DNA of 64,000 nt from Candidatus Zixiibacteriota bacterium (GTDB lineage Bacteria; Zixibacteria; MSB-5A5; WJJR01), in NCBI GenBank assembly GCA_040752595.1, contig JBFMGX010000004.1:365346-429345 (forward strand), in the 5' to 3' direction. The notes under the pieces were generated by a model, which had not been told where the DNA came from, ran no database searches, and saw only the letters and a program-made list of their open reading frames with translations. Shown here piece by piece: positions 2,820 to 61,582 of the stretch (the stretch's first letter is position 1; each line of letters begins with the position of its first letter). A program made the position numbers and the translations under genes.

Positions 2820-2960
2820 GTAGGGGCGCACGGCCGTGCGCCCCTTTGTCTTGCGGGCACGGCCCGCCGTGCCCCTACACGCAGGTCGTTTCCGTTCGTG
2901 TGTAGGGGCGCGGTCTCCGCGCCCTTCTTGGGACATGAGGGCGGGGAAACCCCGCCCCTT
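2820..2960. repeat. Cluster of four REP-like palindromic units (GTAGGGGC-hairpin / hairpin-GCCCCTAC)
   Basis: Perfect hairpins GGGGCGCACGG/CCGTGCGCCCC, GGGCACGGC/GCCGTGCCC, GGGCGCGG/CCGCGCCC, GGGCGGGG-AAAC-CCCGCCCC. The same unit recurs at 14 or more loci in the window. Confidence 0.6.
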
Positions 2961-4215
2961 GTATCTTCGGTTCATGTCATCGTTGTTCGCCCGATCGGGA
3001 GAGGCTGGCTCGCCCCTGAGGCTCTGCGCCTGTGTCGTAGATGGGTCGCCCGGTCGGTTGCACATCTGGGCCATCGAACGGTATCTGAGGCGATCCTTCC
3101 GGACCAGCCCTGATTGACAAGGTGGATGGGGATGTCGCGAACGACGACCGGCACAAACACCCAGGAGGTTGTCCCATGAGCGCAGAACGATTGTGTATCG
3201 GCGTGGATGTCGCCCAGGCAAGCTTGGCGGTGTGGGCGTGCACGCCGGACAAGAGGTCGCAAGGATCCCGGACGTTTGAGAACCGCCGGGCGGGGTTCGC
3301 ACAACTGGTGCGGTGGGCCCGGCAACTGGCGGTGCGTTTGGAGTGCACGCCCATCCACGTCGGGATGGAGTCCACCGGCGTCTATGGGCAGGCGTTGGCG
3401 GCGTATCTGTATCAGGCTGAGGGGATCACGGTCAGCGTGATCAATCCGGCGCAGATCAAGCACGCGGCGCGGGCGAATGGGGCGCGGACCAAGACGGACC
3501 GCACCGATGCCCAACAGATCGCGGTGTTTGTGGCGGAAAAGACGCCACCGACGTGGCAGCCGGAATCGCCGGCCGTGGTCCACCTGCGCGCCTTGGTGCA
3601 GCGCCTGGAGCAACTCAAAGAGATGCAGGTCCAGGAACGCAACCATCGGCACGCGGCCAGCCATGGCGCCCATACCGCCACGGATGTCCTGACCTCGATT
3701 GACGAGTCGTTGGTGGTGATCCACAAGCAGATCGCCGCCCTGCAGAAGCGCTTGCGCCGTCATCTGGATACCCATCCGGAACTGCGGCAGCAAACCGATC
3801 TGTTGCAGACCATCGACGGCATCGGCGAGTGGACCGCCGCCCGGATGATCGCCCGCGCCGGCCGCGCCCTGGTCGAACGCAGTGGCCGCGAACTGGTCGC
3901 CCATGCCGGTCTGGCCCCCGGGGAACGGCAATCGGGCACCTCGCTGCACACCCCACCGCGCCTCGTCAAGATCGGACGCGCCGACTTGCGCTGGGCCCTC
4001 TACATGCCCGCCGTCTGTGGCAGCAAACACAACCCGGTCCTGCGCGCCCTGTTTCAGCGCATTGTCGCCAAAGGACGGCCACCCATCGTCGCCATCATCG
4101 CCTGCATGCGCAAATTGCTCCACATCATCCATGGCGTACTCAAAACCCAGACACCCTTTAACCCCGCGCTCCACCTCACGAGCGCTTGACAAACAAGACG
4201 GTATCTACGAGAACG
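2961..4215 (+). mobile_element. IS110-family insertion sequence; ends approximate, no obvious TIR
   Basis: A single DEDD-transposase ORF fills the element. It is flanked on both sides by REP units (2820-2960 and 4227-4250). IS110/IS1111 members characteristically lack TIRs and target REPs. Confidence 0.5.
3176..4189 (+). CDS. IS110-family transposase (DEDD_Tnp_IS110 N-domain plus Transposase_20 C-domain)
   Basis: CIGVDVAQASLAV, GMESTGVYGQALAAYL, C-terminal IDGIGEWTAARMIARAG...PAVCGSKHNPVLRALFQRIVAKGRPP. RBS AGGAGG precedes the ATG. Confidence 0.9.
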   Translation: MSAERLCIGVDVAQASLAVWACTPDKRSQGSRTFENRRAGFAQLVRWARQLAVRLECTPIHVGMESTGVYGQALAAYLYQAEGITVSVINPAQIKHAARANGARTKTDRTDAQQIAVFVAEKTPPTWQPESPAVVHLRALVQRLEQLKEMQVQERNHRHAASHGAHTATDVLTSIDESLVVIHKQIAALQKRLRRHLDTHPELRQQTDLLQTIDGIGEWTAARMIARAGRALVERSGRELVAHAGLAPGERQSGTSLHTPPRLVKIGRADLRWALYMPAVCGSKHNPVLRALFQRIVAKGRPPIVAIIACMRKLLHIIHGVLKTQTPFNPALHLTSA

Positions 4216-4226
4216 TGCGTGGTTCC

Positions 4227-4250
4227 GTAGGGGCACGGCGCGCCGTGCCC
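4227..4250. repeat. REP unit GTAGGGGCACGGCGCGCCGTGCCC
   Basis: Identical unit also at 17156, 19152 and 57710. Confidence 0.55.
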
Positions 4251-4370
4251 GCGTGCCCAACGATTGCAATGACGTTTCTCTGGCACACGCCTCGACCCGT
4301 GCGTTATCTTATGGTTGGGCGGCGATGAATATGATGGCCGCCGTAAACAAACACGGGGAGACGAAACGTC

Positions 4371-4963: not shown

Positions 4964-5013
4964 GCCACGGGTCTTCAGACCCGTGTCCCCTGATGTAGGG
5001 CGGGCGCCCCCGC
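4964..5013. repeat. Hairpin CACGGGTCTTCAGACCCGTG followed by GTAGGGCGGGCGCCCCCGCC
   Basis: Second and third copies of the first hairpin are at 6413-6432 (same orientation) and 12499-12518 (inverted). Confidence 0.5.
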
Positions 5014-5028
5014 CATCTAACAGTGCAA

Positions 5029-6312: not shown

Positions 6313-6522
6313 TGTATCTTGGGGTCTGGTTTGTGACCCCGCTCACACGCTCTGCCCAAAGACAATATAGCACTCAGGCGTGGCGCGTCAATTGGTGAAT
6401 GCGGCGCCGTGCCACGGGTCTTCAGACCCGTGGTTTCGCAATGCAGGGTGGGCTCTGCCCACCGTCTCAATAGATGTCAGGAGTGCAGTTCGGCTTCGCT
6501 CACCGCAAGCAGGGCTCCTGAC

Positions 6523-9193: not shown

Positions 9194-11116
9194 TTACAAG
9201 TCGGCGGGAATGTGGAGCTTCTGGCCCACGCTGATCTGATCCGGATCGCGGAGGGAATTGTGGGCCAGAAGTTGGGCGATTGTCACACCGAACCGCGTGG
9301 CTATGCGCAGAATCGTGTCGCCCCGCTTCACGGTGTACCAGAAGCCGCTGCCGCTGCTGCCGCTACCCCGTGTTCCATCGGGAAGCACCAGTTTCTGCCC
9401 GACCATCAGACGGTCGTGCGCTCCCATGCGGTTGGCGGCACGGATGGCGGACGTCGTCGTGCCGAACTTGCGCGCCAGATCCCAGAGCGTGTCCCCATGG
9501 CGCACGACATACGTGCTTCCGCTCTTGGCGGAGCGCGACTTCGGCGCGGGCGTCGGGTCCGGCGCGCGTTGACGCACTTCTCTCTGCGCCAGTCGCTCGG
9601 AGGTCGGGATCGTGAGGACCTGACCGACCTTGAGCCGCTTTTTGACGGACAACTTGTTCACCGCGAGAAGTTCGGACAGACTGACTCCATAGCGCCGGGC
9701 GATCTTCCCCAACGTCTCCCCGCGACGCACGGTGTGTTCGACCAATTGGGTCCGGGTCGATGCCGGCAGATCCCGATAGGCCGCGGCGAATTGCAGTGAC
9801 GTTCCCTTGGGCACTCGTACGCGGTACGGCACGACATCGGGTGGTGTAACGCCTCGCCGCAACTCCGGGTTCAGATCGACCAGCACCGCCTCCGATGCGC
9901 CCACGGCACCGGCGACGTCTCTCAATTCCAGCGTCTTGTTGGTGGCGACCCAATCGAACTCCAGGGGCGGATCAGGCTCGACGTAGAACCCGTAGCTCTC
10001 CGGATCCTTGGCGATCATCAGCGCCGCGATGAAGAGCGGCACATAGTTGCGGGTCTGGTCGCGCAGTTTCAGTTTCCAAAAGTCTTTGGTTTTCTGACGC
10101 TTGATTTGACGCGCCACGCGTCCCTCGCCGCCATTGTAGGCGGCCAGAGCCAGAGTCCAAGAGTTGAACATCCCGTACAGATCGGACAGATAACGGCAGG
10201 CGGCGTGCGTCGACTTTTCGAAGTCGCGCCGTTCGTCATACCAGACGTTACGCTCCAATCCGTAGCGGCGCCCTGTCGAGGCGATGAACTGCCACGGGCC
10301 CGCAGCGTGGGCATAGGAATAGGCATTGTTGTTGAAGCCCGATTCGATAAAAGGCAAATAGGCCAGATCGGTGGGGAGGCCATACGAAGCGAAGACATCC
10401 TTCATCATTGGCAGGTATCGACCCGCCCGCCCCAAGAACAGCTCGAACGGCTCACGCGCCACCGTCTGGTAGAACAGAATGCAGTTGCGGACCTTGTCGT
10501 TGAGTTCGACCGGGAAGTCGTACTCTACCTGTTGCTTCTCGGCTTCGCGGGTCACGAGTTCCGTACCGGCCAAGCTGGAGTCGACACTCTCGTAGCGGAG
10601 CATAACCGTCGAACTCGAAGCATCCTCGCCAAGGCTCCCGAGCGCTTCCAGCGTCTTCTCGTAGTCGGTGTTGATTTCTTCGAGGAGACGATCGATTCTC
10701 GCGGCGATTTCGGGGTCCTCAACCGCAGCCAAGTCGATTTCACCCAGAGCCTTGATGGCTCGCTCGAAGGCGACCTGAGCATCCTGCCACCGGGTGTCCT
10801 GGTTGGCGGCCACGCCGGACGCATAGAGCGCCTCGGCTTCTGCGAAGAGATGTGCGGGATCAACCGCTGCCTGCTCTTCGGACTCGGTGACAGGAGCAGC
10901 ACTATCTGTCGCAGTCTCAGGCGATTCCGAGTAATTGCCGGAGTCGAAATCGGCGGCACTCGGCGATGGTTCGCTGGGAACACCACGCCCAGTACGCCTC
11001 GATGTTGTCGCGCATCCTGCCAACGCCAAGGCAAGCAACGCGATCAAGATCGCATGTGGATTCAGTCGACTCGTCACAACCCCCCTTACAGATACCGCAA
11101 TCGTCTTCTGCCCCAC
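9194..11116 (-). CDS. mltD: Membrane-bound lytic murein transglycosylase D-like: SLT domain plus 3 LysM repeats, lipoprotein
   Basis: GTG start. Lipobox LALAGC. SLT motif ESGFNNNAYSYAHAAGPWQF. C-terminal LysM repeats (RRGETLGKIARRYGVS, RHGDTLWDLARKFG, KRGDTILRIATRFGV). Confidence 0.85.
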   Translation of the reverse strand: MGQKTIAVSVRGVVTSRLNPHAILIALLALALAGCATTSRRTGRGVPSEPSPSAADFDSGNYSESPETATDSAAPVTESEEQAAVDPAHLFAEAEALYASGVAANQDTRWQDAQVAFERAIKALGEIDLAAVEDPEIAARIDRLLEEINTDYEKTLEALGSLGEDASSSTVMLRYESVDSSLAGTELVTREAEKQQVEYDFPVELNDKVRNCILFYQTVAREPFELFLGRAGRYLPMMKDVFASYGLPTDLAYLPFIESGFNNNAYSYAHAAGPWQFIASTGRRYGLERNVWYDERRDFEKSTHAACRYLSDLYGMFNSWTLALAAYNGGEGRVARQIKRQKTKDFWKLKLRDQTRNYVPLFIAALMIAKDPESYGFYVEPDPPLEFDWVATNKTLELRDVAGAVGASEAVLVDLNPELRRGVTPPDVVPYRVRVPKGTSLQFAAAYRDLPASTRTQLVEHTVRRGETLGKIARRYGVSLSELLAVNKLSVKKRLKVGQVLTIPTSERLAQREVRQRAPDPTPAPKSRSAKSGSTYVVRHGDTLWDLARKFGTTTSAIRAANRMGAHDRLMVGQKLVLPDGTRGSGSSGSGFWYTVKRGDTILRIATRFGVTIAQLLAHNSLRDPDQISVGQKLHIPADL

Positions 11117-12394: not shown

Positions 12395-12518
12395 CTAACC
12401 TCTCCCTCCGGCAGTGTCCCGAACGGAGTGAGGGAGAGAGGTCGATCCGCCGCAGGCGGATCGGGTGAGGGACAAGGCATCGTGTGCATCATTTGATCAC
12501 ACGGGTCTGAAGACCCGT
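12395..12518. repeat. MITE-like 'CCTCTCCCTCCGG' copy (inverted relative to the 56303 copy) plus the CACGGGTCTGAAGACCCGTG hairpin
   Basis: Direct sequence comparison with 56303-56403 and 4964-4983. Confidence 0.5.
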
Positions 12519-12622
12519 GGCACCCCACGACTCTGCTTGGGCAACTGATTGACCACAGCCATCGCGGCGGTGTTAATTGTCGCGGGCGCATTTCGAGGAC
12601 TGACCAGATCCCCGCGATTCTG

Positions 12623-15268
12623 ATGTCCACCGGCGAAACACCAGACACTCCACTGACTCCGATGCTGCGGCAGCATGCCGAGATCAAGGCGCGCTACCCC
12701 GGCCATCTGGTCTTCTTCCGGATGGGGGATTTCTATGAGATGTTCGGGGACGACGCGGTCGAGGGAGCCCGGATACTCGGGATCACGCTCACCAAACGCC
12801 CTCACGGCAAGAACGGCGCCATTCCCTTGGCTGGGGTGCCGCACCATCAGGCGGAGCGCTACCTCGCCCGGTTGGTCGCCGCCGGGCAACGGGTAGTCGT
12901 CTGTGAGCAAACGGAGGACCCGCGTCATGCCACCGGTCTGGTCAAACGCGACGTCACCGAGATCATCACCCCCGGCACCGTGATGACGCCCGGCGCCTTG
13001 GAAGAAACACAGACGCCCGCCATCGCCGCCGTCGCCGGTCCTGATGCGAATGGGCAGTTCGGGCTGGCGTGGGCCGAGCCGACGAGTGGTCGGTTTGCCG
13101 TGGAGCACTGCGCCCCGGAGGAGTTGGTCGAGTTGCTCTCATCGCACCCCGCCAGCGAGATTCTGATTGCTGCCGATGCCGATTCACGCATCGGCTCACT
13201 GACGGCGGACCGCTCCGGGGTGACCCGTTGGCCCGAGTGGCACTTCGAGCCCGATGAAGCGGCCCGCACGCTGAAATCGCACTTCGGCACCGATGATCCG
13301 AACGCGCTCGGGCTCGATCTCGCGGAATCTCCCCGTCATACTCGGTTGCCGGTCGGGGCTGTCGCGGCCGGGGCATTGCTGGGGTATTTGAAGGAGACTA
13401 AGCGCGCGCCTTTGTCCCACATAACGTCAATGCGCCCGTTGGTTGGACGGGCGGTCGTGGCGATTGACCCCCAGACCGCCGTCAATCTGGACATCATCGG
13501 CCGACCTCACAGCAACCGTCCCACGCTCTGCGATGTCCTGGATCGCTGCCGGACCGCCATGGGGCGACGTCTCTTGCGCGAGCGGCTGACTCACCCGCTC
13601 ACAGACCGCGAGGCGATCGAACGACGGCTGGACGAAGTCACCCATCTCGTCCATGACCGGGGCACGCTCGCCAAGCTCTCCGAGGCCACGAAGGGGATCT
13701 TCGATCTCGAACGGTTTGTCGGTCGTCTGGGGAGCGAACGGATCGGACCGAGAGATCTGCTCGGGCTCCGCGATGCGCTGTCGCGCTGGCCCACGATTGT
13801 GACTCTCATTGGACCCACCCCGCTGGCATATCGCGATGATCCTGCGGTGACGGAGACCGAGCGGTGGCATCAGGAACTGGCGCGCGGTCTGAAGGATGAT
13901 CCGCCGCTGGCGACCACTCAGGGGGGAATCTTCCGGCGCGGCTACTCCGACGAGCTTGACTCCCTGTACGCCGATGCCGCCGAGGCACGGGCCTGGATTG
14001 CCGACCTGCAATCGAAACTGCGAAGTGAAACCGGCATTCCCTCCCTGAAGGTCGGATACAACAAGGTCTTCGACTACTACATTGAAGTTCCGATGACTCA
14101 CGCGGAGAAGGTCCCTGCCGACTGGATCCGCAAGCAGACATTGGTCTCGGCCGAGCGGTTTGTCACCGCCGAGCTCAAAGAGAAGGAGGAGATTGTCCTC
14201 CGGACCGATGAGCGCGCCGCCGAGCTGGAAACACGGTTGTTCCTGGAGTTGCGGACGCGGCTGGTGGCGGAGATCGCGCTTCTATCGGCGTTGGCGCGGA
14301 CGCTGGCGCGGATTGATGTCACTGCCTCGCTGGCGCGGGCGGCACTTTCTCGTGGGTATTCGCGTCCGACGCTCACGAACGACCGGCAATTGACGATCCG
14401 CAAAGGGCGGCACCCGGTCTTGGAGACGATCAATCCTGCCGGCGGCTTCGTTCCCAACGACACGGTCTTCTCGACGGATGACGGCTTCCTGCACATTCTG
14501 ACCGGCCCCAACATGGCGGGCAAGTCGACCTACCTGCGCCAGGTCGGCCTGATCGTGCTGTTGGCGCAGATCGGCTCATTCGTTCCGGCCGAGGCGGCGA
14601 CGATCGGACTGGTCGATCGCATCTTCACGCGGGTCGGCGCCGATGACGATCTGTCGCACAACCGTTCGACCTTCATGGTTGAGATGGCGGAGACCGCGCG
14701 GATACTGGCCGGCGCAACGGCCGCTTCGTTGATCCTCTTCGATGAGGTGGGGCGGGGGACGTCGACATATGACGGGGTCGCCATCGCCTGGGCGATTGCC
14801 GAGCACCTGGCGGGTGACGCTGCGCATTGCCCGCGCACGCTGTTTGCGACCCACTACCATGAGTTGACCTCGCTGGCCGATCGCTTTGCGGCGATCTGCA
14901 ACTATCAATTGGCAACGAAGGAAAAGGACGGACGCGTCGTCTTCCTGTTTCGGGTCCGGCCGGGGGCCTGCGATGACTCGTTCGGCATTCACGTGGCCCG
15001 GATGGCGGGGGTGCCGCCCCCGGTCGTGGCACGCGCCCATGAGATACTCTCAGCCCTGGAGAGTGGAACGTTTGATCCGCTGCGGGGGCGCGGCGCACCG
15101 AGACCGAAGCCGGCGACCGCCTCGGCCGGGCAGGCCAATCTGTTCAGTGATGACCAGCGGGCCGCGGTCGACGCCCTGGCGCAACTGCATCCGGAGGCGA
15201 TGACGCCGATGGAGGCGTTGAACAAACTGGATGAACTCACGCGCCGGTTACGCGGGACAGCGGTGTAG
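12623..15268 (+). CDS. mutS: DNA mismatch repair protein MutS
   Basis: N-terminal mismatch domain (TPMLRQHAEIKARYP, FFRMGDFYEMF). Walker A GPNMAGKST. Stop TAG lies inside the REP motif GTAGGGG at 15265. Confidence 0.95.
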   Translation: MSTGETPDTPLTPMLRQHAEIKARYPGHLVFFRMGDFYEMFGDDAVEGARILGITLTKRPHGKNGAIPLAGVPHHQAERYLARLVAAGQRVVVCEQTEDPRHATGLVKRDVTEIITPGTVMTPGALEETQTPAIAAVAGPDANGQFGLAWAEPTSGRFAVEHCAPEELVELLSSHPASEILIAADADSRIGSLTADRSGVTRWPEWHFEPDEAARTLKSHFGTDDPNALGLDLAESPRHTRLPVGAVAAGALLGYLKETKRAPLSHITSMRPLVGRAVVAIDPQTAVNLDIIGRPHSNRPTLCDVLDRCRTAMGRRLLRERLTHPLTDREAIERRLDEVTHLVHDRGTLAKLSEATKGIFDLERFVGRLGSERIGPRDLLGLRDALSRWPTIVTLIGPTPLAYRDDPAVTETERWHQELARGLKDDPPLATTQGGIFRRGYSDELDSLYADAAEARAWIADLQSKLRSETGIPSLKVGYNKVFDYYIEVPMTHAEKVPADWIRKQTLVSAERFVTAELKEKEEIVLRTDERAAELETRLFLELRTRLVAEIALLSALARTLARIDVTASLARAALSRGYSRPTLTNDRQLTIRKGRHPVLETINPAGGFVPNDTVFSTDDGFLHILTGPNMAGKSTYLRQVGLIVLLAQIGSFVPAEAATIGLVDRIFTRVGADDDLSHNRSTFMVEMAETARILAGATAASLILFDEVGRGTSTYDGVAIAWAIAEHLAGDAAHCPRTLFATHYHELTSLADRFAAICNYQLATKEKDGRVVFLFRVRPGACDDSFGIHVARMAGVPPPVVARAHEILSALESGTFDPLRGRGAPRPKPATASAGQANLFSDDQRAAVDALAQLHPEAMTPMEALNKLDELTRRLRGTAV

Positions 15269-15328
15269 GGGCGACCCGTTGGGTCGCCCGAGGGCGAGGC
15301 AACGCCTCGCCCCTACGACAAAACCACG

Positions 15329-17128
15329 ATGACGATGACCGACACATTGGATCGCACCATCGCCGTCCTCCCCGACCATCTGGTCGACCAGATCGCCGCG
15401 GGGGAGGTGATCGAGCGCCCCGCCTCGGTGGTCAAAGAACTGATCGAGAATGCGCTCGATGCTGGCGCGACCGCGATCGATATCGAAATCGCCGGAGCGG
15501 GGGAGAAGCAGATGCGCGTGGTCGACAACGGCGTCGGCATGAGCGCCGTTGATTTGGCGCAAGCGGTCCTCCGACACGCCACCTCCAAGATCCAGACCGT
15601 CGAGGATTTGGAGGGAATCGTCACGTTCGGCTTTCGCGGCGAGGCGTTGGCAGCGGTCGCGTCGGTTTCACACCTGGAGATCGTCTCCCGTCCGCGCGAT
15701 CATGACGAGGCGGCGATGATGTTCTGGGAAGGGGGAACCCGGAGCGACTCCGGTTCTGTCGGCGCGCCGCCGGGGACCGCAGTGACAGTCCGGCATCTGT
15801 TCTACAACACGCCGGCCCGACATCAGTACATGCGCGCGCCGTCCACTGAAACCAGGCGCATCGTGGAGACAGTGACCGATTTCGCCGCCTATCACCATCG
15901 TGTCGCCTTCTCGCTTCTCATCGACGAGCGGCAGGTCTTGCATCTGGCGGCGGCGCCCGACCGACGCATACGTCTGATTGATCTCTATGGTCACGGTGTC
16001 GGCGATGCGCTCCTGACATTCCAGGGCGGCGACGCGGAACTGGGTGTCGAGGGACATGCGGGGAAACCGGAGTTGGCGCGCGCCACGCGCGACCGGATTC
16101 TCACCTATGTCAACGGGCGACGGGTCTGGTCGCAATCGCTGCAGCACGCCGTCACCGCCGCCTATGGCGAGACGATTCCGCGTGGGCGCTATCCGATCGC
16201 CGTGGTCTGTTTGAACGTCAATCCCCGCCGGGTCGACGTCAACGTGCATCCCACCAAACGTGAGGTGCGCTTCGCCCATGAGCGCATGGTGTACGATCTG
16301 ACCTACTATTCGATCAACAAGGTGATCTTTGCCTCACCGCGTGTCGCACCCGTTCTGCCTCTGAAGGAATCGTATGCCCCGCAGAGCGAGCGATTGCCGC
16401 TGCCCGCGTCCTCGCCGGAGAACGTAGGGGCGTATGGCCATACGCCCCTACCAAGCAACCAATCATCGGATGTAGGGGCGGTTCGTGAACCGCCCGATTG
16501 GCCCGGCTGGCCGACGGATCGGCCCGCACCAATGGCGGCAACATGTGTCCCCCAAGCGACGGACGGCGTCACGAACTTCTGGCAGTTCAACGATGTCTAC
16601 ATCGCCACCGTGGTCGGCGAAGAGCTGTGGATCATCGACCAGCACACGGCGCACGAACGCGTTCTCTATGAGGAAATGCTGCGCCGCGGTCGCGGTCGTG
16701 CCGAATCGCAACGCCTGCTCTTTCCCGAGTCCATCGATCTGGAAACGCGCGAGCTGGAGGTTTTTGGCGCCTCGCTGGATGCCTTCACGGCGTTGGGATT
16801 CGAGGTGCGCCCGTTTGGGACGCGCACCGTCTTGCTGGAGGGAATACCGACCGGGTTGAAGGTGGGCAATCCGGTGATTCTCTTTCGTCGGGTGCTCGAA
16901 GATTTGGAAATAGCCCGTCGCGGGGGAGAAGACTTGATGAAAGCGGCTGCCGCCTCTACCGCTTGCCGTGCTGCGGTCATGGCGGGGGACCGTCTGCGAC
17001 CCGAGGAAATGCACGGTCTATTCGCCCGTTTGATGCAGACGGAGAATCCCTTTTCATGTCCTCACGGCCGCCCGACGATGGTGAAGATCCCCATCACCGA
17101 TTTCGACAAGAAGTTCTGCCGGGCGTAG
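15329..17128 (+). CDS. mutL: DNA mismatch repair protein MutL
   Basis: GHKL ATPase N-domain (AAGEVIERPASVVKELIENALDAGA). C-terminal dimerisation domain with FARLMQTENPFSCPHGRP. Confidence 0.95.
   Translation: MTMTDTLDRTIAVLPDHLVDQIAAGEVIERPASVVKELIENALDAGATAIDIEIAGAGEKQMRVVDNGVGMSAVDLAQAVLRHATSKIQTVEDLEGIVTFGFRGEALAAVASVSHLEIVSRPRDHDEAAMMFWEGGTRSDSGSVGAPPGTAVTVRHLFYNTPARHQYMRAPSTETRRIVETVTDFAAYHHRVAFSLLIDERQVLHLAAAPDRRIRLIDLYGHGVGDALLTFQGGDAELGVEGHAGKPELARATRDRILTYVNGRRVWSQSLQHAVTAAYGETIPRGRYPIAVVCLNVNPRRVDVNVHPTKREVRFAHERMVYDLTYYSINKVIFASPRVAPVLPLKESYAPQSERLPLPASSPENVGAYGHTPLPSNQSSDVGAVREPPDWPGWPTDRPAPMAATCVPQATDGVTNFWQFNDVYIATVVGEELWIIDQHTAHERVLYEEMLRRGRGRAESQRLLFPESIDLETRELEVFGASLDAFTALGFEVRPFGTRTVLLEGIPTGLKVGNPVILFRRVLEDLEIARRGGEDLMKAAAASTACRAAVMAGDRLRPEEMHGLFARLMQTENPFSCPHGRPTMVKIPITDFDKKFCRA
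16424..16497 (+). repeat. Two REP units embedded in-frame in the mutL linker
   Basis: GTAGGGGCGTATGGCCATACGCCCCTAC is a perfect 28-bp palindrome. It is followed by GTAGGGGCGGTTCGTGAACCGCCC. They translate as ...VGAYGHTPLPSNQSSDVGAVREPP... with no frame interruption. Confidence 0.55.
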
Positions 17129-17155: not shown

Positions 17156-17236
17156 GTAGGGGCACGGCGCGCCGTGCCCTTTTGAATGTAGGGCGGGCTC
17201 TGCCCGCCGCAGGGGGCTGGAAGCCCCCTGTCCTCA
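17156..17236. repeat. REP cluster (GTAGGGGCACGGCGCGCCGTGCCC; GTAGGGCGGGCTCTGCCCGCC; CAGGGGGCTGGAAGCCCCCTG)
   Basis: Units identical or near-identical to copies at 4227, 19152 and 58790. Confidence 0.55.
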
Positions 17237-17310
17237 CGTGCAGTTGTCTGGCCGATGAGAAGGAACGGGAGGGCGATCCGCCACGGCGGACTGCCGAGCC
17301 GACCTGGAGT

Positions 17311-17917: not shown

Positions 17918-19099
17918 CTACGCCTTTGTCGTCACCGATTGTGAAGTCGCCGCGATCCCGTACGACTCCACCGCCTTACATTGGGGGCAGTACCAGGCCG
18001 GCTCCGGCTCGCGGTGGCCGCAACGAGAGCAGGTGTACCCTTCATCCTCCAAGGTCCCCGTTCCCAGGAGCGAATCGACCTCTTGGGCGATCTGCTGCCA
18101 GCGAGACTGCTGGGCGAGGGCGCGGATGATCCCGGCGCGGGCCGGAAGGCAAACGGGGTCGATCTCCAGCACCTGTCGGTAGCGGCGCAGGGCGTGGTCG
18201 AACTCCCCCTTCTTCAGGGACAGATTGGCCAGTCCGAGGAGGGCCATCGCGTCATTCGGGTTCTTGTCGAGAATGCGCTCATAGAACTTGTTGATCTCGC
18301 CGTACTGGCCCAGCTCGAAATAGGCGCGTTCGAGACGATCGAAGACCATCTGTGCTGCTTCCGGTCGGGCCGCCGCCAGACGCGTCCACCATTCGACCGC
18401 ATCCTCCGGCTCGCCGTCATCCCAGTAGGCGTCGCCGAGATACAGAAGCGCGGGGATACAGTGCTCGTCAAAGCTGAGCGCTTCCTTATAGGCGACACGG
18501 GCGTCGTGTTTCTTCCCCGCTGCCGACAGTGAGGCGCCCGCCAGTGTCTTGTATATCGCCAGCGTGTGCCCGTCGGCCTTGCCCGAACGCTTGACGGCGG
18601 CGCGGCGGTAGTCGAACGCCGCGTCGAAGCGGCCGGAGTGCGCATAGAGCGCGACCAGTTGATCGGCGGCCCAGGCGTTCTCCTTGTCGACTTCAATGAT
18701 CTTCAACAGCGAACGCTCGGCGGCGGTGTGATCTCCCGACGCCACGTAGTCCAGGGCGAGGCTCTTCTGCACCGCGATGATGTCATTCTTGGAGAAGCCC
18801 CGACGGAGGTTGAGCTCCTGGTGAACCTTGATCGCCCGGTCAATTCGACCCCGCCGGCGCAGAAGGTCGCCGAGTTTCAGATAGGCGTCGAGGTTGTTGG
18901 AATCCTCCTGGGCGGTCATCTTCAAGCGGTCAAAGGCGGTCCGATCATCGCCGTCAACCAGCGCGCGCAGGGCCTCCATGTAGAGGCGCGGCGCCTGGCT
19001 GGTGCGTCGCTTATGTGTGCGGGTCCAGAGATAGGCGAAAACCGCCGCCGCGATCGCGAACACCCAGAAGATGGTCCATCCGAAGCCGGTGAAGTCCAT
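17918..19099 (-). CDS. lapB: Lipopolysaccharide assembly protein LapB/YciM (TPR plus C-terminal rubredoxin-like Zn ribbon)
   Basis: N-terminal TM helix and multiple TPRs. C-terminus YTCSRCGH...WYCPQCK matches the LapB Cx2C..Cx2C metal site. Confidence 0.7.
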   Translation of the reverse strand: MDFTGFGWTIFWVFAIAAAVFAYLWTRTHKRRTSQAPRLYMEALRALVDGDDRTAFDRLKMTAQEDSNNLDAYLKLGDLLRRRGRIDRAIKVHQELNLRRGFSKNDIIAVQKSLALDYVASGDHTAAERSLLKIIEVDKENAWAADQLVALYAHSGRFDAAFDYRRAAVKRSGKADGHTLAIYKTLAGASLSAAGKKHDARVAYKEALSFDEHCIPALLYLGDAYWDDGEPEDAVEWWTRLAAARPEAAQMVFDRLERAYFELGQYGEINKFYERILDKNPNDAMALLGLANLSLKKGEFDHALRRYRQVLEIDPVCLPARAGIIRALAQQSRWQQIAQEVDSLLGTGTLEDEGYTCSRCGHREPEPAWYCPQCKAVESYGIAATSQSVTTKA

Positions 19100-19151: not shown

Positions 19152-19220
19152 GTAGGGGCACGGCGTGCCGTGCCCGCCTCTGACGTGCCGTGCCGGCGGG
19201 CACAGCGCGCGGTGCCCCTA
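19152..19220. repeat. REP cluster bracketed GTAGGGGC...GCCCCTAC; overlaps the lapA stop codon
   Basis: GTAGGGGCACGGCGTGCCGTGCCC ... GGTGCCCCTAC. The terminal CTA at 19218-19220 is the lapA TAG. Confidence 0.5.
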
Positions 19221-19523
19221 CAATTCGTCCAATTCCTCCAATGAACGGTTGCGCAGCGAGGCAACCTCCATCTCCAATCGTTTGCGCCCGCGGCGCTCGC
19301 CGCGCATATCGCTGTGGATCTTCAAGACATACGTCAGCGCCAGCAACGCCGCCACCGCCATCCCGACGAGGAAGGCCCAGTACACGACGATCACCATTGA
19401 GACGTCGCTGTAGGACACCCAGATGACGTCGATCTGAGCGATCCGCTGGGGCGCATTGTAGATGGAGAATCCAAGCGCGATCGCGAACACGATCAAGAGG
19501 ATGATGATGCGTATGATCCACAT
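19218..19523 (-). CDS. lapA: Lipopolysaccharide assembly protein LapA/YciS (DUF1049)
   Basis: 101 aa, two TM helices, basic/coiled C-tail. Sits immediately upstream of lapB as in E. coli. Confidence 0.65.
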   Translation of the reverse strand: MWIIRIIILLIVFAIALGFSIYNAPQRIAQIDVIWVSYSDVSMVIVVYWAFLVGMAVAALLALTYVLKIHSDMRGERRGRKRLEMEVASLRNRSLEELDEL

Positions 19524-56302: not shown

Positions 56303-56403
56303 CCCCTCACCCGATCCGCCTGCGGCGGATCGACCTCTCCCGGAGGGAGAGGTTGCTTTCTCCCCTCTCCCCGGTGGGGAGAGGGTAGGGTGAGGGGTTT
56401 TTG
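56303..56403. repeat. MITE-like element with 16-bp terminal inverted repeats (AAAAACCCCCTCACCC...GGGTGAGGGGTTTTTG), 'CCTCTCCCTCCGG' family
   Basis: TIRs seen directly. Internal palindromes CCGCCTGCGGCGG and CTCTCCCGGAGGGAGAG. Related copies at 7590, 12395 and 47105. Confidence 0.5.
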
Positions 56404-56475: not shown

Positions 56476-57480
56476 ATGTTCCAGACGACGCTGGTCGGCA
56501 ACCAACCGAAGGTATTCGAAGACCCGGCGTGCGGCGCACCGGGCGTGAATCTCCGGTTGGCACGCAACCGGTTTGACCAGGGGCGCATCACCGCGGCCGA
56601 GTTGGAGGATGTGGTCCGCGCGACCATCCGGGCAACGCTGGACGATCAAGCCCGCGCCGGACTGGACTGGTTGACCGACGGCCGGATTCGCTGGGATGAT
56701 CCGGTGACTCCTTTCGCCGCGGCGCACGAGGGGTTCACGATCGGCGGCCTGATTCGGTACTTCGACAACAACGTCTACTATCGCCGTCCCACGATCGCCG
56801 GGCCGATCCGTTTTGTGCGCTCGGCGGTTGCCGATGACTACCGCTTCGCAAGCAGTGCCGGTCGCGGCCGTGTCATTCCCTCCGTCTGCGGACCGTTCTC
56901 GTTGGCGAAGTTCTGCGTGGACGAGTACTACCATAAGGAAGAAGCGCTGTATGCCGATTGTGCCGCACTGGTGCGCGGCGAATTGGAGGCCTTGGCGGAC
57001 GCCGGTGCCGATTGGGTACAGTTGGACGAGCCGTACTTGGGACGCTGCCCGGACGAAATCGACGCCGCGGTCACCGCGATCAGCGCCGCCACTATCGGTG
57101 TGGACGTGCGGGTGTTCGTCCACACCTACTTCTGCCCGATTGAAGGGATCGGCGACCATCTCTGGCGGTTACCGGTTCATGCGATCGGCGCCGACTGTGC
57201 CACGGTCCCCGGCAACTTCGAAGCGTTGATCCACGGTCCCAAGACGATGGGTCGGGGCTTCGGTTTGGTCGATGCCCGCACCACTCGTCTGGAGACGGCC
57301 GATCAGATCGTCAGGCAACTGGAACGATTGGCAGCGGCCGGTGCGGCCGATTGGCCCGCCTGCTTCATCACGCCGTCGGCGGCGCTGGAGTTCCTGCCGT
57401 ATCCGAGCGCGATCGCCAAGATGCGCCGTCTGGTCGCCGCCGTTTGCCAGTTCCTCGGCGTGGCCTGCGGGGCGTCATGA
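56476..57480 (+). CDS. MetE-fold (UroD/MetE-like TIM barrel) protein lacking the Zn-binding ligands; resembles the MetE N-terminal domain
   Basis: Overall similarity to short cobalamin-independent methionine synthases, but no HxC or D-CGL Zn motifs (has HTYFCP and lacks the C-terminal Cys). Confidence 0.6.
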   Translation: MFQTTLVGNQPKVFEDPACGAPGVNLRLARNRFDQGRITAAELEDVVRATIRATLDDQARAGLDWLTDGRIRWDDPVTPFAAAHEGFTIGGLIRYFDNNVYYRRPTIAGPIRFVRSAVADDYRFASSAGRGRVIPSVCGPFSLAKFCVDEYYHKEEALYADCAALVRGELEALADAGADWVQLDEPYLGRCPDEIDAAVTAISAATIGVDVRVFVHTYFCPIEGIGDHLWRLPVHAIGADCATVPGNFEALIHGPKTMGRGFGLVDARTTRLETADQIVRQLERLAAAGAADWPACFITPSAALEFLPYPSAIAKMRRLVAAVCQFLGVACGAS

Positions 57481-57759
57481 AGGATTACACGGTGGGCGGA
57501 GGGAGCGTGCCACGGGCCTTGGTCCGCGATCTGCGGCGGCTTAGGCGCGCACTGACCAAGGTCAGTGGCACACACGTCTAACGCCGGGGACAGAGACGTC
57601 ACTGTTCCCAATCCTGTCATGCTGGGCGAAGCGAAGCATCTCTATAGGCAGGCGACTCACCATGGAATCTCATAGAGACCTTTCGCTTCGCCGGTGACAG
57701 AGATGAGGTGTAGGGGCACGGCGCGCCGTGCCCGAATCCGGACCCCGGAGATCAGAAAC

Positions 57760-58722
57760 ATGTTGGAAACCACCAGCGTCGGATCATTCCCCAAGCCGGA
57801 CTACCTGGTCAAGGCGCGCCGGGACCGGCAACAAGGCAAGGTGTCGCCGGACGAGTTAACCACCGTGGAACGGCGGGCCACCGAGGAATGGATTCGCATC
57901 CAGGAACGAATCGGGATCGACATCCTCGTGCATGGCGAGATGGAACGCGGCGACATGACGACGTTCTTTGCGGAGCTCCTGGATGGGTATGGGATTTCCG
58001 GCCTCGTGCGCTCCTATGGGAATCGCTACTATCGCAAGCCGATCATCCAGTCGACCTTGTCGCGTCCCCGGCCAATGACCACAGACTGGCACTGTTGGGT
58101 GCAGTCCCTGACCACCATGCCGGTCAAGGGAATGCTGACCGGACCGTACACGATGTGTGACTGGTCCTTCGATGAACATTATCCGTCACGGCGCGATGCC
58201 GTGCTGGCGCTGGCCGAGATCGTGCGCGATGAAGCCCATGATCTCGAAGCCGCGGGCGCCCGCTACATCCAGATCGATGAGCCGGCGATCTCGACCCGCC
58301 CCGATGAAATCGAGTTGGCCATCGAGGCCATGGAGGTCGTCACGGCGGGACTGAAGGCGACGACGATCAGCCACATCTGCTACGGCGATTTCGCGATGAT
58401 GTATCCGCGCATCCTGGACCTTCCCGTCGACATGCTCGACCTGGAGTTTGCCAACTCGCAATTCGCCAACCTCGACATCTTCCGCAAGCCGAAGTTCACC
58501 AAGCGGATCTCGGTCGGTGTTATCGATGTCCATTCGCACGTCATCGAGACCAAGGGGCAGGTCAAGGACGGCATCCGACGTGCCCTCGACGTCTTCGACC
58601 CGGCGCTGGTGTGGATCGACCCGGACTGCGGCCTGAAAACGCGCACGCCGCAGGAGGCGATCGACAAGTTGACGGTGATGGTCGAAGCGGTCAAAGAGAT
58701 CAAACAGGAGATGGGATTGTAG
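57760..58722 (+). CDS. metE: Cobalamin-independent methionine synthase, short (C-domain/archaeal-type) form
   Basis: Zn ligands HICYGDF, E in ...LEFAN.., DPDCGLKTR. Start at ATG 57760; the upstream portion of the listed ORF overlaps a REP unit. Confidence 0.8.
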   Translation: MLETTSVGSFPKPDYLVKARRDRQQGKVSPDELTTVERRATEEWIRIQERIGIDILVHGEMERGDMTTFFAELLDGYGISGLVRSYGNRYYRKPIIQSTLSRPRPMTTDWHCWVQSLTTMPVKGMLTGPYTMCDWSFDEHYPSRRDAVLALAEIVRDEAHDLEAAGARYIQIDEPAISTRPDEIELAIEAMEVVTAGLKATTISHICYGDFAMMYPRILDLPVDMLDLEFANSQFANLDIFRKPKFTKRISVGVIDVHSHVIETKGQVKDGIRRALDVFDPALVWIDPDCGLKTRTPQEAIDKLTVMVEAVKEIKQEMGL

Positions 58723-58949
58723 GGTGCGTGCTTTGCTTGTGGCGAGCGACTTGTCCTGGGCGGAGTCGAAGGAAGCCGACCCGCACGCACCGCAGGGGGC
58801 TGAAAGCCCCCTGTCCTCGATTCCAAAAGCGTGGGTTGTAGCGGCACGGCGTGCCGTGCCCGGAGGGACGATCGGCGTGTAGGGGCCGGTCTGAGACCGG
58901 CCCGGCCCCGTGCCAAGAAACAAGAGGGCGGGTCTGAGACCCGCCCAGA

Positions 58950-60875
58950 ATGTTGATCATGCCCGATCAGACACGATCCCGTGCTCACCCGCTGTTCGAC
59001 CGTCTCACGGCCGGACCGATCCTCGCCGATGGCGGGATGGGGACGATGCTCTATCGACGCGGCGTATCGTTCGAGCGCTGTTTCGATGAACTGAATCTCT
59101 CCGCGCGGGCGCTGGTCCTCGGCATTCATCAGGACTATCTGCGGGCCGGAGCACGCCTGATCGAAACCAATACCTTCGGCGGCAACGGCGTGCGTCTGGC
59201 CGCGCATGGCCTCGAACACAAGGTCCGGGACATCAACTATCACGGTGCCCGTCTGGCACGCGAGGCGCGGGAGATCGAAGGTGTCGATGCCTTCGTAGCC
59301 GGCGCGATCGGCCCTTTGGGGAAGAATCTCGCGCCGTGGGGACCGGTTCCGGCTCTCATGGCGCGTTCGCATTTTGCCGAGCAGGCCGCGGCGCTGCTCG
59401 AAGGCGGCGTCGATCTGTTCATCATCGAGACGATGTCGGACACCGCCGAGATGGCCGAAGCGGTGGCCGCGGTACGGTCCCTCTCCGATCTCCCGATCAT
59501 CGCGGAAATGACCTTCACCGAGGAGGGGTTGACGACCACCGGTCGAACTCCCGGGGAGATCGCCGGATTCCTGAACGCGCTTCCCATCGACGTGATCGGC
59601 GCCAACTGCTCGGTCGGGCCGCAGGGGATGTTGGAAGTCATCCACCACCTGGCGTCGATGGCGACAAAGCCGCTGGTCGCGATGCCGAATGCGGGGATGC
59701 CGCGGTTGGTCGATGGGCGGTTCGTTTACGCGGCCACGCCGGAGTATTTCGCCAGTCTGGTCGGTTCGTTTCTGGCCCATGGCGTGCGCATTCTCGGTGG
59801 GTGCTGTGGCACGTCTCCCGATCATATCGCGGCGATGGGGGAGGTGTTGGGCCGCGCCCGGACGGCTTCATCCGAACCGGTTGTCACCTTCGTCTCCACG
59901 CCAGAACCGGAAACGCTGGCCAGCGAGCCCGCCGCTGCAGCACGGTCCAGTTTCGCGCAGAAACTGGGGAAGCGATTTCAAGTGTCGGTTGAACTCGATC
60001 CGCCGAAGGGTACGAATCCGATCAAGTTACTGGAGGGCGCGCGCCTCTGCCTGGGTGCCGGAGTCGATGCTGTGAACATTGGCGATTCGCCGATGGCCCG
60101 TGTGCGCATGAGCGCTTTGGCTGTCGCGGCGCTGATCGAGCGCGAAGTCGGACTGGAGACGATCCTGCATTTCACCTGTCGCGACCGGAATCTGATGGGG
60201 ATACAATCCGACCTGATCGGCGCTCATGCTCTCGGCATACGCAATGTGCTGGCGATCACCGGCGACCCGCCCTCGCTGGGTGACTATCCGCATGTGACCG
60301 GTGTCTATGATGTCGATTCGATCGGACTAACCCGGATTCTCACCGCGCTCAACATGGGAAAGGACCTCGCCGGCGTTTCCATCGGACGTCCGACGACATT
60401 TGCCGTCGGCGTCGCGCTCAACCCGGCGGCCGACGACTGGCCGACCGAGCTTGATCGTTTCCGGCGTAAGGTGGAGGCCGGGGCACATTTCGCCTTCACG
60501 CAGCCGCTCTATTCCCTCGCGCCGCTGGAAAGGGCGATCAAGGCAATCGATGAATTCCGCATTCCGGTCTTCCTGGGTTTGTTGCCGTTGATGTCGTTCC
60601 GGCACGCTTGGTTCCTGCACAATGAAGTGCCGGGGATCACGGTCCCCGAGGACCTCTTGGGACGCATCAAGGACGCCGGAGAGGGCGGAGCAGAAATCGG
60701 AGTACAAGTCTGCCGTGACGTTCTGAGGCAGGCCCGGGAAATGATCGCCGGCGCCTATCTGATGCCCTCATTCGGCCGCTATGAGACCTGTCTGCGCGTC
60801 GTTGAAGGAATGATCGAGAAGAAGCCGGATACGATCCTGCCGGACAGCATCTTGGCACAGCGCCTCCAACCGTAG
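58950..60875 (+). CDS. yitJ: Bifunctional homocysteine S-methyltransferase / 5,10-methylenetetrahydrofolate reductase (YitJ-like)
   Basis: N-terminal Hcy-binding domain (ADGGMGTML, Zn Cys in ANCSVGP and GGCCGT). C-terminal MetF barrel (SVELDPPKG, HFTCRDRN, ITGDPP). Confidence 0.85.
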   Translation: MLIMPDQTRSRAHPLFDRLTAGPILADGGMGTMLYRRGVSFERCFDELNLSARALVLGIHQDYLRAGARLIETNTFGGNGVRLAAHGLEHKVRDINYHGARLAREAREIEGVDAFVAGAIGPLGKNLAPWGPVPALMARSHFAEQAAALLEGGVDLFIIETMSDTAEMAEAVAAVRSLSDLPIIAEMTFTEEGLTTTGRTPGEIAGFLNALPIDVIGANCSVGPQGMLEVIHHLASMATKPLVAMPNAGMPRLVDGRFVYAATPEYFASLVGSFLAHGVRILGGCCGTSPDHIAAMGEVLGRARTASSEPVVTFVSTPEPETLASEPAAAARSSFAQKLGKRFQVSVELDPPKGTNPIKLLEGARLCLGAGVDAVNIGDSPMARVRMSALAVAALIEREVGLETILHFTCRDRNLMGIQSDLIGAHALGIRNVLAITGDPPSLGDYPHVTGVYDVDSIGLTRILTALNMGKDLAGVSIGRPTTFAVGVALNPAADDWPTELDRFRRKVEAGAHFAFTQPLYSLAPLERAIKAIDEFRIPVFLGLLPLMSFRHAWFLHNEVPGITVPEDLLGRIKDAGEGGAEIGVQVCRDVLRQAREMIAGAYLMPSFGRYETCLRVVEGMIEKKPDTILPDSILAQRLQP

Positions 60876-60905
60876 GTCAGGAGCCCTGTGCTCCTGACAC
60901 CGCGA

Positions 60906-61424
60906 TCAAATCGCCTCCCGGGCACCTTCCAACTCCAACAAGGCAATCTTGTGATGCACCTGACCGGAGAATCCCCCGATCGAACCGTCGGATCTGACCA
61001 CGCGGTGGCAGGGGACGACGATGGGAAACGGGTTTCGTGACATCGCCTGACCGGCCGCACGCGCACCACCGGGCGACCCGGCGCGTTCGGCCAGTTCCCC
61101 ATATGACACGGTCTTCCCGTAAGGGATGCGGGCACATGCTTGCAGCGCCTTGCGCGAGAAACCATCGACACGCGACCAATCAATCGGCAGATCGAACCTC
61201 TGACGCCTCCCAGCAAAGTACTCCTTGAAGGCCCGTCCGATCTTCGCGGTCTGTCGGTCATCGGCAATCGCATCCACGCCGTCGGCCGTAAGGTCCTTGA
61301 GGAATCGCTCCCGTGTCCGCCCAAAATCGACCCGCCACAGTCCCCGTTTGCTCACCGCATACCACACATCGCCGAATGCCGCGGCCCGAAAGTGGCCATA
61401 GTACACCGGAGTCATGGTCTTCAT
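60906..61424 (-). CDS. ogt: Methylated-DNA-protein-cysteine methyltransferase
   Basis: Active site IVVPCHRVVRSDGSIGGF. HTH GKTVSYGELAERAG. Confidence 0.85.
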   Translation of the reverse strand: MKTMTPVYYGHFRAAAFGDVWYAVSKRGLWRVDFGRTRERFLKDLTADGVDAIADDRQTAKIGRAFKEYFAGRRQRFDLPIDWSRVDGFSRKALQACARIPYGKTVSYGELAERAGSPGGARAAGQAMSRNPFPIVVPCHRVVRSDGSIGGFSGQVHHKIALLELEGAREAI

Positions 61425-61528
61425 CGGTCGCCTCCCCTTGCCCCGAGGGACCTATGCACGACGGAATATGCAGATGCCATCACTTTTTGCGGCATCCCAT
61501 GGGGCAAGGCGTACCGTGCCCGTTCTCC

Positions 61529-61582
61529 GTAGGGGCGCCATTCATGGCGCCCTCCCTTCGGGCGTGATGAATCACGCCCCTA
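61529..61582. repeat. Two REP units in the ogt / AI-2E divergent promoter region
   Basis: GTAGGGGCGCCATTCATGGCGCCC and GGGCGTGATGAATCACGCCCCTAC. Confidence 0.5.

Follow-up and report, generated by a model that had tools for sequence, protein, structure and literature searches.

A 64-kb stretch of a Candidatus Zixiibacteriota genome (contig JBFMGX010000004.1, positions 365,346 to 429,345; hereafter the window) is colonized by a family of short, G+C-rich hairpins that carry an unpaired 5' GTAG, i.e., by GTAG-tagged repetitive extragenic palindromes (REPs). Two of the units lie in frame within mutL, and across most of one Zixibacteria clade the first of them is found at the same place and in the same frame of mutL. 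We consider it likely that the mutL copies are old insertions into the interdomain linker of the protein, that they have been kept by descent, and that their hairpin is under constraint. Zixibacteria are known only from metagenomes. The window has a G+C content of 63% and contains about 50 genes, called from third-position G+C and Pfam matches, which leave 13% of the sequence non-coding.

Within the window, GTAGGGGC is present 19 times, compared with 0.93 occurrences expected from shuffled sequences. Scanning for GTAG followed by a hairpin (stem of 7-12 bp, at most one mismatch, loop of 2-8 nt) returned 25 units, as against a mean of 0.5 in first-order Markov random versions, and 22 of the 25 fall into the non-coding 13%. 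As background we used 160 unrelated bacterial mutL loci, i.e., MutL relatives of at most 41% identity that clade-alignment scans of genome and metagenome collections had recovered through generic MutL motifs such as DQIAAGEV; a scan of the genome-contig collection with MutL as the sole query yielded no related loci. The 1.98 Mb of background sequence contain 26 units, or 0.13 per 10 kb, a density that the 3.75 units per 10 kb of the window exceed 29-fold. The over-representation suspected in the initial annotation of this DNA is therefore strong; all 12 loci that it had listed hold at least one unit, and two further units lie at 31424-31444 and 60872-60898. Overall, the units are over-represented 30-50 fold and nearly confined to intergenic DNA. 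A CRISPR or tandem array was discarded on inspection, since the units are dispersed and irregularly spaced.

The anatomy of the unit is that of a REP with a single head: GTAG is followed by GGGC-N5, a loop mostly of 2-3 nt, and N5'-GCCC. Stems measure 7-9 bp, with 13 bp in the palindromic mutL copy, and are perfectly Watson-Crick paired except for one C/T mismatch, without a single G-T pair among the 25 units. The inner five stem positions are diverse and give about 15 stem sequences. In single-stranded DNA folding, single units reach -9.6 to -12.6 kcal/mol and the minimum-free-energy structures leave GTAG unpaired; z-scores of -3 to -6 were obtained for single units and doublets alike. The initial annotation had described the unit as GTAGGG, a hairpin and CCCTAC, a definition that we had to revise: the literal pattern GTAGGG-N(6-34)-CCCTAC matches once in the window, at the palindromic mutL copy, and a far-end CCCTAC is otherwise present because a second unit lies inverted beside the first. 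Six such inverted doublets, heads outward, were found (2820-2878, 15265-15316, 19152-19221, 37588-37656, 37679-37746 and 61529-61583). Doublet partners differ in stem (GCGCACG/GCACGGC, GCGACCC/GCGAGGC, GCGCCAT/GCGTGAT), and the doublets fold as two separate hairpins. Signs of copying are apparent in both arrangements. Identical 24-mers stand at three unrelated loci (4227, 17156 and 57710), their subfamily, of the GGGCACGGC type, being the commonest and found mostly as single units, and a heterodimer with the stems GGGCGACCC and GGGCGAGGC (GACCC/GAGGC) is present twice, at 15265-15316 with a 3-nt spacer and at 37588-37656 with a 19-nt spacer.

The mutL gene (15329-17128, plus strand; 599 aa, endonuclease type, annotated by NCBI as MutL, P0001) is an unbroken open reading frame (ORF) with all of its HATPase, DNA_mis_repair and MutL_C domains detected by Pfam. 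It hosts two units:

16424-16451, plus strand: fully palindromic REP GTAGGGGCGTATG-GC-CATACGCCCCTAC, comprising codons 366-374 (VGAYGHTPL) and the first base of codon 375 (P)
16472-16495, plus strand: REP GTAG GGGCGGTTC-GT-GAACCGCCC, comprising codons 382-389 (VGAVREPP)

As the initial annotation had claimed, both are translated as part of the interdomain linker, between DNA_mis_repair (aa 218-332) and MutL_C (aa 419-556), without breaking the frame. Both read GTA GGG GCx, a frame avoiding TAG. We compared the DNA of ten MutL orthologues from the same Zixibacteria clade, across which the synteny miaA, mutS, mutL, lapB, lapA is kept. Their linkers contain the following:

L001: MutL 78% identical to that of the window, both linker REPs present nucleotide for nucleotide
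L002 (P0009): REP GGCGCATG-GA-CATGCGCC at the same place and in the same frame, and a minus-strand REP further on
L003 (P0014): REP GGGCGCAT-GGCT-ATGCGCCC, same place and frame
L005 (P0003): REP GTAGGGGCGAATA-AT-TATTCGCCCCTAC, same place and frame
L006 (P0005): REP GGGCGTAT-TTC-ATACGCCC, same place and frame
L007 (P0016): non-palindromic remnant GTC ATC GCA GAG CCC CAC GCG CCA GTT
L168, L169 and L170: unit absent, with a clean 9-codon (27-nt) gap in the alignment

Close relatives thus have the same linker residues together with palindromic DNA, and L001, which shares the mutL REP DNA of the window, derives from an independent metagenome. More distant Zixibacteria MutLs (62-65% identity), which serve as outgroups, are without the linker segment; alignment therefore identifies the segment as an insertion.

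Two side observations concern the same linker. A motif W-[PV]-G-W-P-[TS]-[DE] reads DWPGWPTD in the window (aa 390-397, 16497-16520) and AWPGWPSE in L001, where it differs by synonymous changes and is conserved at the protein level; WVGWPTD is found in the unrelated MutL of a Nitrospirota metagenome-assembled genome (L154:~1165-1185), and the motif may be a linear motif. The same Nitrospirota MutL, 36% identical to that of the window, has an in-frame linker hairpin GTAG GGGCAAAA-AATC-TTTTGCCC on the minus strand at 1120-1143 (~aa 371), which as one mutL-linker case among the 160 background loci is not statistically significant.

The most likely history of the first mutL copy, as read from these alignments, is a single insertion in the ancestor of the clade, followed by compensatory stem change, clean loss of 27 nt in some lineages and decay in one. 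In a neighbor-joining tree built with the linker excluded, REP-bearing lineages include the two basal branches of the clade. We weighed this history against repeated, independent REP insertions at a linker hot spot, a scenario in which the identity between the window and L001 would merely reflect a recent shared ancestor. Divergence of the linker flanks is too great for orthology to be proven, and the counts of events are alike, with one gain and 2-3 losses on the one side and 4-5 gains on the other. Extra REPs stand elsewhere in the linkers of L002 and L003, including one in minus-strand orientation, a second copy is present in the window and in L001, and the unrelated Nitrospirota mutL has an in-frame linker hairpin as well. 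Descent is nonetheless favored because the primary copies of all six genomes are oriented alike and all use one frame out of the two that are permitted, because their stems (GGGCG-[T/C/A]AT) are far more alike than the roughly 15 stems of the window, and because a decayed remnant is preserved in L007 at the corresponding linker position. In addition, REP-less alleles differ by exactly 27 nt, and the flanks of the gap, a Val codon (GTR) and Pro-Asp, are kept in L168 and L170, with neither kept in L169. Taking these points together, we regard recurrent hot-spot insertion as unlikely.

Constraint on the hairpin becomes apparent when the window is compared with L001. Their mutL genes share 76.8% nucleotide identity overall and 56.6% at third codon positions, and the linker outside the REPs drops to 59% with insertions and deletions, whereas the two REPs match at 51/51 nucleotides, 17/17 third positions among them. 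Were third positions to match at the gene-wide rate, 17/17 would be expected with a probability of about 6e-5. Among the orthologues of the first copy, which comprise five distinct sequences, stem pair 10-19 appears as C-G, U-A and A-U, and pair 13-16 as G-C, A-U and G-U; 93.8% of cells are paired, and the observed covariation score was reached by 6 of 500 shuffles. The loop of the L006 copy is 3 nt long, so that its 3' arm is read in a shifted frame (VGAYFIRPG); the palindrome is nevertheless retained, which argues against a constraint on the peptide. We infer that purifying selection probably acts on the mutL hairpin itself, as DNA or RNA, and not on the peptide that it encodes.

Perfect stems and compensatory changes could also be produced by mutation alone, through intrastrand template switching that corrects quasipalindromes, in which case a permissive linker would simply tolerate the mutL copies as neutral passengers. 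Such correction by template switching is an established process, and near-perfect Watson-Crick stems without G-T pairs fit copying at the DNA level better than selection at the RNA level. Di Nocera et al. argue that linker insertions may be neutral (PMC3733652). Self-correction of this kind maintains complementarity of the arms yet permits paired change; it is insufficient for the mutL copies because complete identity, at 51/51 nucleotides, adjoins a fast-evolving linker. Moreover, the same two genomes do differ in their orthologous intergenic REPs between mutS and mutL. We therefore judge template switching, as a full account, to be quite improbable.

Outside mutL, the units favor sites downstream of genes and between convergent genes: REPs or hairpins occupy 5/7 convergent, 7/35 co-directional and 1/7 divergent spacers. 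Their heads also supply stop codons. The TAG of mutS (15266-15268) and that of the lapA-domain gene (19218-19220, minus strand) both sit within a GTAG head, confirming what the initial annotation had noticed, and so does the TAG of the gene at 58950-60875, which lies within the GTAG of the hairpin at 60872-60898. In L001, the nearest relative, the mutS stop is likewise the TAG of a REP head. That the hairpins are independently evolved terminators or mRNA 3' stabilizers without a common-origin repeat family would suit the position of most units right after stop codons, the co-orientation of single units with the upstream gene in 10/11 cases and the T-rich tracts behind a few units (2820, 2902 and 17156), yet it is rendered highly improbable by the conserved unpaired GTAG with fixed GGGC/GCCC stem ends, the identical 24-mers at unrelated loci, the duplicated heterodimer, the copies within a coding region and upstream of genes, and the absence of a T tail from most units. 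A role as terminator or stabilizer is compatible with REP identity and is no alternative to it.

By analogy with REP/RAYT and IS200/IS605 systems, the units would move in single-stranded form, as hairpins on which a Y1 (HUH) tyrosine transposase acts in trans by recognizing GTAG and the stem. Fixed copies would then be transcribed at the 3' ends of genes, where such hairpins can stabilize or terminate mRNA. The mutL copies are inserted into the disordered linker between the ATPase/transducer and the dimerization/endonuclease domains, where 8-9 extra residues are tolerated.

The remaining units and hairpins of the window are:

2820-2878: REP doublet, heads outward, 3' of the isocitrate dehydrogenase gene, GTAG GGGCGCACG-GC-CGTGCGCCC (plus strand) and GTAG GGGCACGGC-GG-GCCGTGCCC (minus strand)
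2902-2924, plus strand: single REP GTAG GGGCGCGG-TCT-CCGCGCCC
2939-2957: headless hairpin GGGCGGGG-AAA-CCCCGCCC following the REP at 2902-2924
4227-4250, plus strand: REP of the commonest subfamily, GTAGGGGCACGGCGCGCCGTGCCC, the 24-mer shared with 17156 and 57710
4995-5014, plus strand: weak unit GTAG GGCGGG-CGCC-CCCGCC with a 6-bp stem, between convergent genes
15265-15316: REP doublet that takes up the spacer between mutS and mutL, stems GGGCGACCC and GGGCGAGGC, the first GTAG holding the mutS stop
17156-17208, plus strand: two REPs 3' of mutL, one of the GGGCACGGC type followed by TTTT and one GTAG GGCGGGC-TCT-GCCCGCC
17210-17230: hairpin of another type, CAGGGGGCT-GGA-AGCCCCCTG, following these two REPs
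19152-19221: REP doublet between the lapB-like and lapA-domain genes, its minus-strand unit with one C/T mismatch
27313-27338, minus strand: REP GTAG GGGCGGCC-CTACGT-GGCCGCCC in a composite repeat region (27305-27620) that also contains headless hairpins and a duplicated ~45-nt element
31424-31444, minus strand: intergenic REP GTAG GGTGGGC-TCC-GCCCACC
37559-37746: REP cluster between convergent genes, with an imperfect unit at 37559 and doublets at 37588-37656 (stems GGGCGAGGC and GGGCGACCC) and 37679-37746 (stems GGTGGGTGC and GGTGGGT)
57710-57733, plus strand: REP identical to the 4227 copy; the likely start codon of a metE-like gene (ATG at 57761) follows 27 nt downstream
58838-58903, plus strand: two REPs, GTAGC GGCACGGC... 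and GTAG GGGCCGGTC-TGA-GACCGGCCC, with headless hairpins on either side at 58793 and 58926
60872-60898, plus strand: GTAG followed by GTCAGGAGC-CCTGT-GCTCCTGAC, a different stem type
61529-61583: REP doublet, stems GGGCGCCAT and GGGCGTGAT, the sole cluster in a divergent intergenic region

Besides mutL, the genes of chief relevance are:

3176-4189, plus strand: IS110-family transposase gene, not part of the REP family
12623-15268, plus strand: mutS
17918-19099, minus strand: lapB-like TPR gene
19218-19523, minus strand: lapA-domain gene
32906-35182, plus strand: TonB-dependent receptor gene with a cobalamin riboswitch upstream

REPs of this kind are expected to depend on a Y1 transposase, and the initial annotation had proposed to look for a linked gene of the REP-associated tyrosine transposase (RAYT) type. 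Several relatives of the window do contain a Y1 gene, located at the mismatch repair locus. A 150-aa PF01797 protein is encoded between mutS and mutL in L006, L168, L169 and L170-172, at these positions:

L006:1854-2306, Y1 gene
L168:7492-7944, Y1 gene
L169:8999-9451, Y1 gene, with a degenerate partial second copy at ~9600-9660
L170:9639-10091, Y1 gene

The six closest database homologues of the Y1 protein are 74-99% identical, and those with readable context all reside at the mutS-mutL site (P0121 in L006, P0124 in L170-172). This shows that the Y1 enzyme class is resident at the mutS-mutL locus in this lineage. In L006, L168, L169 and L170 the gene is flanked by nested inverted repeats of ~100 nt. 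The left flank reads TTAG-CCCAGGGC-GTGA-GCCCTGGG ... GCCCCGGAGGGGCGACAC, with the loop being N4 across loci, and the right flank is its mirror image; the inner inverted repeat reads GGGGCGAC, one mismatch off GGGGWSAS. Best Protein Data Bank (PDB) matches of the Y1 protein are the TnpA transposases of ISDra2 and IS608 (2xm3, 2a6m), and among matches at E <= 0.01 no chain is named as a REP-associated transposase. From these features, the relatives' Y1 gene looks like a fixed tyrosine transposase flanked by terminal inverted repeats (TIRs), of the sort termed TIRYT. The mutS-mutL spacer of the window holds the REP doublet only, and the TTAG hairpin type of the Y1 flanks is absent from the window. 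We considered the doublet as a relic of a Y1 cassette, as the inner repeats of the cassette, GGGGCGACAC/GTGTCGCCCC, resemble the stem GGGCGACCC, and rejected the idea as speculation only: the shared bases are the generic start of a REP stem.

The joint occurrence of REPs and a Y1 gene at a mismatch repair locus raises a more far-reaching possibility. The mutL hairpins might be kept by selection as a signal, in DNA or in the mutS-mutL transcript, that tunes the expression or stability of MutL, within a long-standing association between a domesticated Y1 and the mismatch repair locus, and the Y1 gene that sister lineages maintain between mutS and mutL would have left only the REP doublet in the window. 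We rate this combined scenario as a doubtful one. If true, it would mean that a REP/Y1 system is functionally coupled to mismatch repair and that an intragenic REP has a selected role. Independently of it, the mutS-Y1-mutL synteny of the relatives offers a defined place to seek the enzyme partner of the REPs.

Several observations weigh against our account of a REP family with mutL copies kept by descent. To the near-equal event counts of descent and hot-spot insertion given above must be added that the covariation support for the mutL copy is drawn from just five distinct sequences. Partners within a doublet are unlike and do not form a single long hairpin, which places them outside the definition of a REPIN, the REP doublet mobilized as a unit. 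No Y1/RAYT gene (PF01797) was found among the ~50 genes of the 64-kb window. In the relatives, the Y1 gene is flanked by the TTAG hairpin type and GCCCCGGAGGGGCGACAC, not by GTAGGGGC REPs, and GTAGGGGC density is unrelated to the presence of the Y1 gene, so that the candidacy of this Y1 as the partner of GTAGGGGC REPs is unsupported. Finally, the Y1 protein of L006 scores 73 bits on the transpos_IS200 model (cut-off 55), which it passes, and 21 bits on the RAYT model (NCBIfam NF047646, REP_Tyr_transpos; cut-off 80), which it fails.

The IS110-family gene at 3176-4189, which encodes an RNA-guided transposase of the bridge-RNA type, lies inside the REP cluster at 2820-4250. It contains PF01548 and PF02371 and matches NF033542 at 204 bits (cut-off 140). 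Plausible CT junctions of the element are found at 2875-2876, where the CT belongs to the CTAC head of the REP spanning 2855-2878, and at 4205-4206. These candidate junctions would bound an element of ~1330 bp with a non-coding left end of 299 nt up to the ATG and a right end of 15 nt, and its excision would leave a head-to-head pair of GGGCACGGC REPs. The REP at 2902-2924 and the headless hairpin at 2939-2957 may then lie inside the left end. RNA folding of this putative left end was no better than that of shuffled sequences (z = +0.72), Rfam gave no match, and an exact-protein look-up from two start codons found no second copy of the transposase on record.

A further repeat, at the N-terminus of the TonB receptor, had been described in the initial annotation as a palindrome related to the REPs. 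We found a 29-nt repeat, in three copies:

32944-32972, plus strand: 29-nt repeat GCGATCCGCCGCGGCGGACCGCCGAGCCG near the start of the TonB-receptor ORF
17273-17301, plus strand: second copy, with 2 mismatches
35250-35278, minus strand: third copy, inverted after the gene

The repeat lacks a GTAG head, and its folding does not exceed that of shuffled sequence (z = +0.35); it forms a family of its own, neither a GTAG REP nor a stable hairpin, and the proposed kinship is not supported. Its reported location is correct: it corresponds to codons 13-23 of the TonB-receptor ORF from ATG 32906, which is also the NCBI start (P0241), and recurs after the gene and at 17273. Its translation is putative: as annotated, the receptor has a 69-aa pre-sequence whose first ~45 residues are unmatched in homologues (most leaders measure 25-48 aa), and G+C by codon position is flat along this stretch; between ATG 32906 and the signal-peptide core no canonical start is present. 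Placement of the element in a 5' untranslated region, with a GTG start near 33047, was rejected: the codon is GTC, and the NCBI start is 32906. If translated, the leader stretch would be cut off with the signal peptide. Two long-leader homologues of the receptor contain CRGG[V/A]SPP, which would correspond to GTAGGGGC read in its other open frame. Upstream of the receptor gene, a cobalamin riboswitch (32507-32709; Rfam RF00174, 90.8 bits) suggests a role in B12 uptake.

Other repeats and genes of the window were recorded alongside:

4966-4985, 6412-6433 and 12500-12519: three intergenic copies of a second palindromic family without a GTAG head, GCCACGGGTCT-TC-AGACCCGTGG
12436-12470 and 56305-56340: two inverted copies of a small repeat family, CCCTCACCCGATCCGCC-TGC-GGCGGATCGACCTCTC
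17210-17230 and 58793-58813: two copies of a small repeat family adjoining GTAG REPs, CAGGGGGCT-GRA-AGCCCCCTGTCCTC
27305-27350 and 27545-27590: the ~45-nt element, duplicated 240 nt apart, GACGGGCGGCCAC[G/A]TAGGGCCGCCCCTA[C/T]GTGCGTTCTCGGATTC, the copies differing in the stem CACGTAGGG/CCCTACGTG, where G-C in one is replaced by A-T in the other, a compensatory change
1462-1513: two adjoining perfect hairpins (12-bp and 10-bp stems) directly behind the GTG that is annotated as start codon of the isocitrate dehydrogenase gene; the true start may lie downstream (the Pfam domain begins at aa 64), and the hairpins would then be intergenic
56476-60875: two metE-like genes and a homocysteine S-methyltransferase/MTHFR fusion

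Among known systems, the element in the REP cluster recalls IS110 elements, which insert into REPs: the natural target of IS621, ATCAGGCCTAC, terminates with the CTAC head that belongs to an E. coli REP (PMC11208160; ISPpu9, 10.1101/2025.01.17.633520). The IS110-family transposase (NF033542) of the window likewise lies in a REP cluster, with its candidate junction inside a REP CTAC; in contrast to IS621, the limits of the element and its bridge RNA are putative here. The "peel and paste" IS200/IS605 elements resemble our system in that the relatives' Y1 best matches TnpA, in that a hairpin beside a short, fixed tetranucleotide follows the logic of their ends, and in that the 27-nt presence or absence in mutL looks like precise insertion or excision beside a GTR codon. 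They differ insofar as the REPs encode nothing, and the relatives' Y1 is flanked by inverted repeats, as opposed to same-strand hairpin ends, and stays at one chromosomal site across species. Rickettsia palindromic elements (RPEs) are considerably longer, about 100-150 bp, than the GTAG hairpins of 24-28 bp inserted here. The likeness lies in the in-frame palindromic insert that leaves the host protein functional, with repair genes among the hosts (cited by Di Nocera et al., PMC3733652, as references 13 and 14); correspondingly, the mutL inserts keep the frame and MutL keeps all its domains. In that paper, the intragenic R. conorii repeats equated with RPE-4 and RPE-6 are classed as CGTC repeats.

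With regard to the enzyme, the relatives' Y1 appears closer to the TIR-flanked tyrosine transposases of TIRtrons than to RAYT. TIRYT genes are described by Di Nocera et al. as Y1 genes flanked by long terminal inverted repeats unrelated to GTAG REPs, some of which share GGGGWSAS (PMC3733652). REPIN-RAYT systems (PMC3116915, PMC5581495) share with the window inverted doublets, at least one of them apparently copied as a unit, and long vertical persistence at orthologous sites, and with the related genomes a single-copy, syntenic Y1 gene. A RAYT gene is lacking from the window, and the Y1 of the relatives departs from RAYT in model score and in its other inverted repeats.

The closest counterpart is the GTAG-tagged REP superfamily that Di Nocera, De Gregorio and Rocco described in 2013 for eight phyla, and to which the SMAG repeats of Stenotrophomonas maltophilia belong as well as the classical REPs of E. 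coli and Pseudomonas (PMC3733652). According to that study, its members have stems of 6-13 bp, loops of 2-3 nt, inverted dimers and sub-families with alternative complementary stem residues, prefer sites 3' of ORFs and spacers that separate convergent or co-directional genes, and often supply a TAG stop with their termini; intragenic copies accumulate in genes of replication and repair (uvrABCD, recBCD, polA, dnaE2), a pattern that its authors took to be probably no accident (PMC3733652). The units of the window share the head, stem, loop, dimers, gene-context preference, TAG stops and repair-gene copies, and thereby every defining feature that can be tested within 64 kb. The initial annotation had called in-frame REPs in a core repair gene unusual; the copies are real, and the adjective is overstated given that GTAG REPs have been on record since 2013, both as providers of stop codons and as inserts within repair genes (PMC3733652). 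The window adds the phylum Zixibacteria, which is not among the eight, and mutL as a host, which like mutS goes unmentioned in that paper; a literature search combining Zixibacteria with REP terms returned no paper naming Zixibacteria. The inner five stem positions of the window are unusually diverse for the superfamily. As far as the consulted parts of the 2013 paper extend, the comparative result is also new: an intragenic REP kept across species at one site and in one frame, with compensatory stem changes and full nucleotide conservation in one pair, is not reported there (PMC3733652). This retention bears on a question raised by Di Nocera et al., namely whether it is by accident that REPs occur in repair genes, and it makes mutL a specific site for testing whether selection acts on a REP hairpin rather than on its peptide.

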